A program made the translations under genes and the position numbers. Under the pieces are notes generated by a model that made no database searches, was not told where the DNA came from, and saw only the letters and a list, made by a program, of their open reading frames with translations. A DNA stretch of 1,179 nucleotides from Escherichia coli (lineage in GTDB: Bacteria; Pseudomonadota; Gammaproteobacteria; Enterobacterales; Enterobacteriaceae): assembly GCF_003334385.1 (NCBI RefSeq), contig NZ_QOWN01000123.1; one strand, 5' to 3'. Positions 1 to 1,179 of this stretch are shown here, piece after piece. Positions within the stretch are counted from its first letter, which is position 1, and the number at the start of each line of letters is the position of its first letter.

Positions 1-40
1 CTGCGATCAGCAGGATCAGCGCGCCGACTATCTGTAACAT
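1..40 (-). CDS. 5' end (first 13 codons) of a downstream gene encoding a protein with a hydrophobic N-terminus (probable inner-membrane protein or signal/anchor segment); possibly the yeeR-like gene that follows flu in the E. coli CP4-44 prophage. Continues beyond the left edge.
   Basis: Seen in sequence: ATG at 40-38 (minus) followed in frame by MLQIVGALILLIA with no stop to the window edge. GGAG lies 5 nt upstream of the ATG (plus-strand CTCC at 46-49). The gene is on the same strand as, and 120 bp downstream of, the autotransporter stop. It is too short to appear in the ORF track, and the yeeR identity is recollection only. Confidence 0.45.
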   Translation of the reverse strand, partial: MLQIVGALILLIA

Positions 41-109: not shown

Positions 110-140
110 GGTCCGGGTCCCGATCATGATGACCGGGACC
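110..140. other. GC-rich imperfect inverted repeat (potential stem-loop) in the 3' intergenic region of the autotransporter gene; not a canonical intrinsic terminator
   Basis: Seen in sequence: 116-122 GGTCCCG pairs perfectly with 134-140 CGGGACC (7 bp, 11-nt loop). An alternative register, 110-119 against 131-140, gives a 10-bp stem with one mismatch. The loop contains the short palindrome ATCATGAT. No T/U-run follows on either strand. Confidence 0.3.
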
Positions 141-160: not shown

Positions 161-1179
161 TCAGAAGGTCACATTCAGCGTGGCCTGACCGTTATAGCCT
201 TCAGCGCTGCTGCCGCTGACGCTGTGGACATAACCTGCCTGAACGCCCAGGGTGATATTTTCCCGGACACGGGCTTCCAGTCCGGCCTGCAGGTCCAGTG
301 ACGTACCATTCTGTGACGGTGAGAACGTCATGTTACTGCCGGCTGCGGCTGTACCCATGCTCATGTCCCCCCGGGAGCTGAAGGTGCGGATAACAGAAGG
401 CTGTACCCACCAGTTCACCGGCAGTTCACGCACACTGTGTTTGGCACTGCCGCGCAGGGTGTCACGGGATGAGGTGCCTTTACCAAAGTTCATATCGTGG
501 TGGCTGCCCAGACGGAAGCCGGCACGCACATGTTGTGCACTGCCATGCCCGAACTTCACATAACTGGCGTTATCCTGGCCGTCATCCAGGGAGAGTCCCT
601 GCCAGGTGTACTGCAGTTGCGGCTCCAGCATCAGATTGTCAGTGATACTGAAGGGCAGACCGGTTTCCAGCGAACCCAGCCAGCCCCAGCCCCGGACGCG
701 GAAGTCGTTATTGTCCGATGAGGCTTTCATGCTGTGGCGGGTTCCCTGGGCCACAATGTCAGCCCACAGGCCGGAGGCGTTGTGTATCAGATTCAGGTAT
801 CCGCCCAGGCTGCCGGCATCATCCCGGACCGTGCCGGCACGGGAGCCGTCATCATCCTTAACATCAACGGAAGAATGGCCAGCAGCACCATATACCCCCG
901 CGGTCACAGACATACCGGCAACCTCTGTTCTGAGCAGGTCACCCTCCAGACGGACGAAGCCATAGCTGCCGCTGCTTTCCGGCGTGGCTCCACGGGCAAT
1001 ACCGCCGTTGTTATCGTGACCGAGATGACCGCCCTGAATGCTGAGACGGACGCTGTTATTTTCACCGCTTACACCGGTCTGATGGCTGCGGGAGCCTGCC
1101 AGAATCCGGTCATAGTCCATTGCCTGTGTCAGCATGGAGGCATACAGGGGGACTTCTGCACGATAAGCATTTTCACTGC
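161..1179 (-). CDS. flu: Type Va autotransporter, C-terminal translocator (beta-barrel) domain plus preceding linker; antigen 43 (Ag43)-like. Partial: 5' end and passenger domain lie beyond the window's right edge. Stop codon at 161-163.
   Basis: Seen in sequence: a 324-aa minus-strand ORF in the track, and my manual translation of 1136-1178 continues in frame with no stop (...SENAYRAEVPLYASMLTQAMDYDR...), so the Met at 1135-1133 is internal. The C-terminus ends in an aromatic residue (NVTF), the usual outer-membrane beta-signal. Repeated amphipathic segments with alternating hydrophobic/aromatic residues (YGFVRLEGDLL, FRVRGWGWLGSL, LQYTWQGLSL, WWVQPSVIRTF, ITLGVQAGYVHSV) and Gly/Ser/Asp-rich connectors fit a 12-strand barrel. 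Established knowledge/recollection: the sequence closely matches what I remember of the E. coli Ag43 beta-domain; not verified by search. Confidence 0.85.
   Translation of the reverse strand, partial: SENAYRAEVPLYASMLTQAMDYDRILAGSRSHQTGVSGENNSVRLSIQGGHLGHDNNGGIARGATPESSGSYGFVRLEGDLLRTEVAGMSVTAGVYGAAGHSSVDVKDDDGSRAGTVRDDAGSLGGYLNLIHNASGLWADIVAQGTRHSMKASSDNNDFRVRGWGWLGSLETGLPFSITDNLMLEPQLQYTWQGLSLDDGQDNASYVKFGHGSAQHVRAGFRLGSHHDMNFGKGTSSRDTLRGSAKHSVRELPVNWWVQPSVIRTFSSRGDMSMGTAAAGSNMTFSPSQNGTSLDLQAGLEARVRENITLGVQAGYVHSVSGSSAEGYNGQATLNVTF

Follow-up and report, generated by a model that had tools for sequence, protein, structure and literature searches.

The window, a stretch of 1,179 nucleotides of Escherichia coli DNA analysed here at its full length, holds on its minus strand the 3′ part of an autotransporter gene. 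Positions 164-196 almost certainly encode strand 12, the last strand of the outer-membrane barrel, of Antigen 43 (Ag43; agn43/flu), a self-associating type Va autotransporter adhesin whose gene ends at the TGA codon at 161-163. Translation places the codons of YNGQATLNVTF at 164-196 on the minus strand with the TGA directly behind them, and the minus-strand translation of 199..161 reads GYNGQATLNVTF followed by the stop. The present analysis shows the sequence and where the gene ends, its family, its conservation and, as a prediction, the strand; the contacts with TamA and BamA come from published experiments on K-12 Ag43. The feature belongs to already described biology: Ag43 itself, its 12-stranded translocator and the way in which its last strand contacts TamA and BamA have all been published. 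Self-association (autoaggregation) through the passenger domain and Dam/OxyR phase variation are further traits by which the Ag43/Cah family is recognised; both the passenger and the promoter lie outside the window.

The minus-strand frame is open over 338 codons, from 1177 down to 164. All 1,179 bases are 100% identical to many E. coli chromosomes, in which the region is annotated as the 3′ part of the Ag43 gene, and at lower identity the window matches 4145 of the 5426 complete E. coli genomes, with agn43 at 7364 places in all and a median copy number of two per genome. In strain SK1144, one of the genomes 100% identical to the window, the annotated CDS encodes 948 aa and ends at window base 161, and the window translation corresponds to the last 338 residues (611-948) of that protein. 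The full SK1144 CDS, of which the window holds residues 611-948 only, scored 1986.3 bits (curated cut-off 1200 bits) against the NCBIfam equivalog NF033177 (auto_Ag43, Ag43/Cah family autotransporter adhesin), with residues 1-948 aligned to profile positions 1-948 of 948. As this match reaches profile position 948 of 948, nothing is missing at the protein end. Pfam PF03797 (Autotransporter beta-domain) was matched over residues 63-314 (E 2.8e-21, model positions 16-254 of 255) and PF13505 (OMP beta-barrel) over residues 188-335. Over the last 338 residues, identity is 316/338 to K-12 Flu, 320/338 to O157 Cah and 309/338 to CFT073 Ag43. K-12 Flu is of the same family and has the same C-terminus: its last 22 residues are identical to those of the window protein and are followed by the same TGA stop. 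One substitution near the end distinguishes the protein from Antigen 43 of K-12/Cah (GYVHS vs GYAHS). The identical genomes carry the 948-aa short form of the allele (Cah-length) and not the 1039-aa form of K-12; the two forms differ in length in the passenger domain, which the window does not cover. The coordinates of the features are collected in the table.

Table. Features of the 1,179-nucleotide window, with the evidence for each
Feature	Position	Strand	Evidence
Beta-signal strand 12, YNGQATLNVTF (last 11 Ag43 residues)	164..196	-	Translation, AlphaFold, conservation in 63 tails, AIDA-I 4MEE alignment
TGA stop of agn43	161..163	-	Translation; same stop annotated in RefSeq genomes; TGA also in K-12, O157 and CFT073
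12-stranded translocator beta-barrel, window residues 42-338	164..1054	-	AlphaFold, Foldseek, PF03797
Barrel strand 1, residues 42-54, expected seam partner of strand 12	1016..1054	-	AlphaFold strand call
Alpha-helical linker, residues 8-27	1097..1156	-	AlphaFold helix; profile aligns from here on to AIDA-I 4MEE
Open frame, upstream end	1055..1179	-	From residue 611 of the 948-aa protein; gene runs on beyond the window
GC-rich hairpin, GGUCCCGGUCAU-C-AUGAUCGGGACC	116..140	-	21 nt past the agn43 stop; RNA fold
yeeR-like downstream gene, first 13 codons (MLQIVGALILLIA)	1..40	-	ATG 38-40, GGAG 47-50

An AlphaFold model built with an alignment of 29 sequences (A1) reached pLDDT 87.3 and pTM 0.86, compared with a pLDDT of only 31 from single-sequence input. 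It has a helix at residues 8-27 and then 12 long strands within residues 42-337. The last of these strands spans residues 326-337 of 338, and thus the stretch at 164-196 corresponds to strand 12. In type Va autotransporters the linker helix sits inside the barrel pore. From the topology of a closed barrel, strand 12 would be expected to pair with strand 1, and the directions of its side chains are predicted from the same topology. The folds nearest to the model in a Foldseek search were EspP, AIDA-I, EstA, Hbp, BrkA and NalP (E 2.5e-15 to 2.8e-8). The A1 profile recovered AIDA-I, BrkA, EspP and Hbp from the PDB sequences, and a single-sequence search of the same PDB sequences returned nothing at E ≤ 0.01. 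The protein thus has the C-terminal PF03797 domain and the 12-stranded barrel behind an alpha-helical linker that characterize type Va autotransporters. The assignment to this class in the sequence-only reading is borne out by PF03797, by the NF033177 equivalog and by the resemblance of the 12-strand model to EspP, AIDA-I, Hbp, BrkA and NalP.

The sole long part of the model with low confidence (pLDDT < 50) is a 23-residue segment between strands 8 and 9, at residues 228-250 (428-496, minus strand; FGKGTSSRDTLRGSAKHSVREL...), which is shorter in many relatives. By strand parity this segment should be a periplasmic turn, and as such it would be unusually long for an autotransporter barrel.

By sequence profile, the closest solved structure is the AIDA-I transport unit 4MEE (E 3.6e-22), aligned from the linker helix through its last residue (...GIKYSF). 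The two folds match with TM 0.69-0.76 at about 18% identity in the structural alignment, and both proteins end in hydrophobic-x-F. AIDA-I ends in ISGALGIKYSF, in which position -6 (counting from the C-terminus) is the canonical Gly and position -3 is aromatic, whereas Ag43 has Thr at -6 and Val at -3. A published phylogeny puts the Ag43 translocator into one cluster with AIDA-I (G13; PMC10058404). The best structural match is the beta-domain of EspP (3SLJ, and the BAM-EspP structures 8BO2/8BNZ; E 2.5e-15, TM 0.71-0.78). EspP is a SPATE protease autotransporter with 14% identity to Ag43, and its passenger is cleaved inside the barrel. Its signal, NFRYSF, has aromatic residues at -1, -3 and -5, unlike that of Ag43.

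Counted from the C-terminus, the residues of the terminal strand are F(-1) T V(-3) N L(-5) T A(-7) Q G(-9) N Y(-11). The F, V, L and A at -1, -3, -5 and -7, with T, N and T between them, give an alternation of hydrophobic and polar residues from -1 to -7, and the Phe is the very last residue before the TGA. We searched the 338 residues for the corresponding 7-residue pattern (F or W last; hydrophobic at -3, -5 and -7; non-hydrophobic at -2, -4 and -6). Given this protein's own composition, it is expected by chance at 5.4e-4 per position, and it was seen once, at the extreme end. This agrees with the alternating hydrophobics and terminal Phe that had been read from the sequence. By itself such a terminal pattern is weak evidence; it gains weight because it lies at the end of an autotransporter beta-domain and because it is conserved in relatives.

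Outer-membrane proteins are said, after Struyve et al. 1991 and Robert et al. 2006, to carry a C-terminal signature of a final Phe or Trp with alternating hydrophobic residues. Ag43 shares with this general signature the terminal Phe, the hydrophobic residues at -3, -5 and -7 and the polar residues at -2, -4, -6 and -8. It departs from the older rule (hydrophobic at -3, -5, -7 and -9) in having Gly rather than a hydrophobic residue at -9, and from the canonical consensus (polar-x-G-x-x-hydrophobic-x-hydrophobic) in having Thr rather than Gly at -6. Gly at -6 and a hydrophobic residue at -9 are each common in the motif without being universal, so the departures make the Ag43 strand a variant and do not exclude it.

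Conservation was assessed by scanning 1.84 billion cluster representatives, which yielded 674 relatives at E ≤ 0.001. We examined the best 150 of the 674, and in 86 of these the alignment reaches the end of the query. Among the 86, 74 end exactly at the aligned last residue, seven continue past the Phe by a single Arg or His, three show two residues of alignment slack and end in F or W, and two (P0044 and P0132) run 31-34 residues further. F is the final residue of 55 and W that of 22 of the 86, and in seven more F is second to last; thus the earlier expectation that aligned autotransporter C-termini would conserve the terminal aromatic holds among these best 150 of 674 relatives. In the 63 distinct homologue tails from the same best 150 of 674, positions -1, -5, -7 and -11 are hydrophobic in 100% and position -3 in 98%, and Gly occurs at -9 in 86% and at -6 in 48%. 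The window residues agree with every strongly conserved column, and at -6 the window has Thr.

The relatives with an extra residue form a subfamily (P0035, P0036, P0038, P0040, P0047, P0048 and P0061), with barrels about 37-41% identical to the one described here and ends of ...GVSFR or ...LSFH. They place one basic residue past the ‘terminal’ Phe, an unusual arrangement if recognition depends on the aromatic residue having a free carboxylate.

The sequence-only reading had taken the terminal Phe and the alternating residues as the hallmark recognised by the BAM complex. Published work on Ag43 itself supports part of this and widens the rest. In a 2026 TamAB structure paper, a hydrophobic-X-hydrophobic-X-hydrophobic-X-F motif was described in the last strand of Ag43, and disulfide cross-links in K-12 Ag43 joined strand 12 to strand 1 of TamA and to strand 1 of BamA (PMC12800296). 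The BamA contact thus stands, but BAM is not the only partner, as TamA strand 1 is contacted too. In the 1039-aa K-12 translation we find Q1032, T1038 and F1039, and the paper names its strand-12 cysteine mutants Q1033C and T1039C, with numbers one higher. Its residue numbering appears to be offset by one, so the exact cross-linked residues are slightly uncertain. From the identity of the last 22 residues we infer, safely, that the window allele would behave like K-12 Ag43 toward TamA and BamA. While EspP is being assembled, its strand 12 (the beta-signal) and BamA strand 1 are joined in a rigid antiparallel seam (Doyle and Bernstein; PMC6659671). Mutations at -1 and -3 of the beta-signal slow the assembly of OmpA and EspP by both TAM and BAM (PMC11341756). 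As such mutations in other outer-membrane proteins slow assembly and do not abolish it, the strand is not an all-or-none signal.

Set in this framework, the C-terminal strand of Ag43 would, after Sec export, pair edge-on with strand 1 of an Omp85 insertase (TamA and/or BamA), with Ala, Leu, Val and the terminal Phe as its outward-facing residues. A hybrid barrel would form, and the remaining eleven strands would fold onto it. Strand 12 would then swap its partner for Ag43's own strand 1, which would close the barrel around the linker helix and allow the passenger to reach the surface.

Ag43 was reportedly identified as a TAM substrate by Selkrig et al. in 2012. It is a serious possibility, though one we consider somewhat less than probable, that the signal is read mainly by TAM (TamA) with BAM as a mere backup, in which case the BAM complex would be the wrong primary machine. 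The TamAB structure paper concludes that TamAB is the main route for Ag43 and that BAM contributes partially (PMC12800296). However, the same study obtained the BamA-Ag43 cross-link, and in the in vitro experiments of Wang et al. TAM as well as BAM was able to fold the Ag43 beta-domain, BAM proteoliposomes doing so without TAM (PMC11341756). A predominance of TAM would in any case alter the partner of the strand and not the nature of the feature.

A second alternative is that the strand is conserved solely for the folded barrel, in closing the seam with strand 1 and placing the terminal aromatic in the aromatic girdle on the periplasmic side, and that no insertase reads it as a signal. Any transmembrane beta-strand has hydrophobic residues alternating with polar ones, and the computed results here do not separate structural need from recognition. 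We nevertheless consider this alternative unlikely, given the direct cross-links of Ag43 strand 12 to strand 1 of TamA and of BamA (PMC12800296), the cross-links and cryo-EM structures that join EspP strand 12 to BamA strand 1 (PMC6659671; 8BO2 and 8BNZ, both among the Foldseek matches), and the block of assembly by both machines with darobactin, a competitor for beta-signal binding (PMC11341756). Structural and signal roles are, moreover, not mutually exclusive for strand 12.

The stop codon at 161-163 had been proposed as the true 3′ end of the gene, and several lines of evidence agree on it. It is where the RefSeq CDS of a 100%-identical genome stops, and K-12 Flu (1039 aa, ending in ...GYNGQATLNVTF), CFT073 Ag43 (1039 aa, ending in ...GYNSQATLNVTF) and O157:H7 Cah (949 aa, ending in ...GYNGQATLNMTF) all have TGA at the same codon. 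In O157, similarity to the window breaks off exactly at base 161. The ungapped identity with O157 Cah is 114/120 over the last 120 nt of the CDS and 29/120 over the first 120 nt past the stop; the corresponding values for CFT073 Ag43 are 113/120 and 65/120. Given this drop in similarity after the stop in O157 and CFT073, the stop is also the boundary of a conserved module. The agn43 module occurs in different islands, with a 3′ recombination boundary exactly at the stop codon.

We see next to no chance that this stop is premature and that the window holds the remnant of a C-terminally damaged autotransporter pseudogene. Genuine C-terminal truncations of agn43 do exist (a copy in strain YJ1 is annotated as a pseudogene missing its C-terminus), and two short database fragments, P0044 and P0132, run beyond the normal end. 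However, none of the 12 predicted strands is missing from the window, the terminal Phe is present, the match to the NCBIfam profile runs to its last position, and 84 of the 86 distant relatives among the best 150 of 674 end at this point with F or W, followed by one further residue at most. Extension of homologues past the stop, which had been named as the finding that would speak against this gene end, is therefore not what the relatives display. We rejected P0044 and P0132 as extended homologues: they are short fragments with frameshifts within or just before the last codons, and their tails are translated intergenic DNA that is not conserved. For the C-terminus, the premature-stop reading is already refuted. 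The earlier claim that the gene is intact and not a pseudogene remnant holds for the C-terminus as read from the window. The 5′ two-thirds of the gene lie outside it, so that the window proves an intact C-terminus and not an intact gene; that the whole gene is intact is seen from the identical full-length 948-aa CDS in public genomes.

The YJ1 copy of agn43 (3274-6157 of the YJ1 locus) breaks at about window residue 275, where it is fused to a 5′-truncated antirestriction gene, and thus strands 10-12 are absent. The deletion also took out yeeR and neighbouring genes along with the end of agn43.

Two plus-strand ORFs that overlap the stretch at 164-196 (50-301, 83 aa with a GTG start, and 126-188) are both present in the mechanical ORF list, but they are unannotated in the SK1144, K-12, O157 and CFT073 genomes, the strong family matches sit on the minus-strand frame, and the O157 similarity breaks off at the minus-strand stop, which lies midway through ORF 50-301; with no annotation and no conservation break that fits them, we rejected both, and the idea that the signal belongs to a plus-strand gene can be practically dismissed.

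Past the stop, the hairpin is a near-perfect palindrome, GGTCCCGGTCAT-C-ATGATCGGGACC. The RNA fold of the region containing it (106-151) has an energy of -38.3 kcal/mol (z = -2.35). A terminator scan after the agn43 stop found no intrinsic-terminator-like site, and as the hairpin has no U-tract, it is not a canonical intrinsic terminator. An Rfam scan of the whole window on both strands gave nothing at E ≤ 1. The hairpin is kept in K-12 and CFT073 and is absent downstream of O157 cah. In one arm, a C in K-12 corresponds to T (U) in the window, which preserves a G-U pair. Between agn43 and yeeR, the hairpin may act as a stem that stabilises the transcript or takes part in its processing, or it may be a palindrome bound by a protein.

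The downstream gene is annotated as yeeR (510 aa) in K-12 and as a hypothetical protein of 838 aa in SK1144 (locus 3524-6040) and CFT073. Given these lengths, the K-12 yeeR looks shortened. The 838-aa protein matched no NCBIfam family. In SK1144, K-12 and CFT073, agn43 lies in a CP4-44-like island with yeeR, yeeS, yeeT and cbeA-cbtA toxin-antitoxin genes, and the setting in K-12, a CP4-44-type island with yeeR/yeeS/yeeT/cbeA-like genes downstream, is like that of the window allele. In O157, cah is followed by genes of the dynamin family (and not yeeR), the RdcB family and a patatin-like type. A GTPase-family gene lies upstream in SK1144, CFT073 and O157, and its counterpart in K-12 is the yeeP pseudogene.

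For annotation, the value of identifying strand 12 and the TGA behind it is that the agn43 copy in the window has a complete translocator and a proper stop, unlike other copies in circulation in E. coli that have lost the C-terminus. An Ag43 lacking strand 12 could not enter the outer membrane or display the adhesin. About half of the relatives lack Gly at -6 and Ag43 is reported to be TAM-dependent (PMC12800296), and on these grounds one may speculate, at long odds, that the Ag43-type last strand (Gly at -9, Thr or Asn at -6 where the canonical signal has Gly, and an aliphatic Val rather than an aromatic residue at -3) is a distinct flavour of beta-signal that biases these adhesins to TamA over BamA. 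If true, such a TamA-biased strand would explain why Ag43 is a preferred client of TAM.
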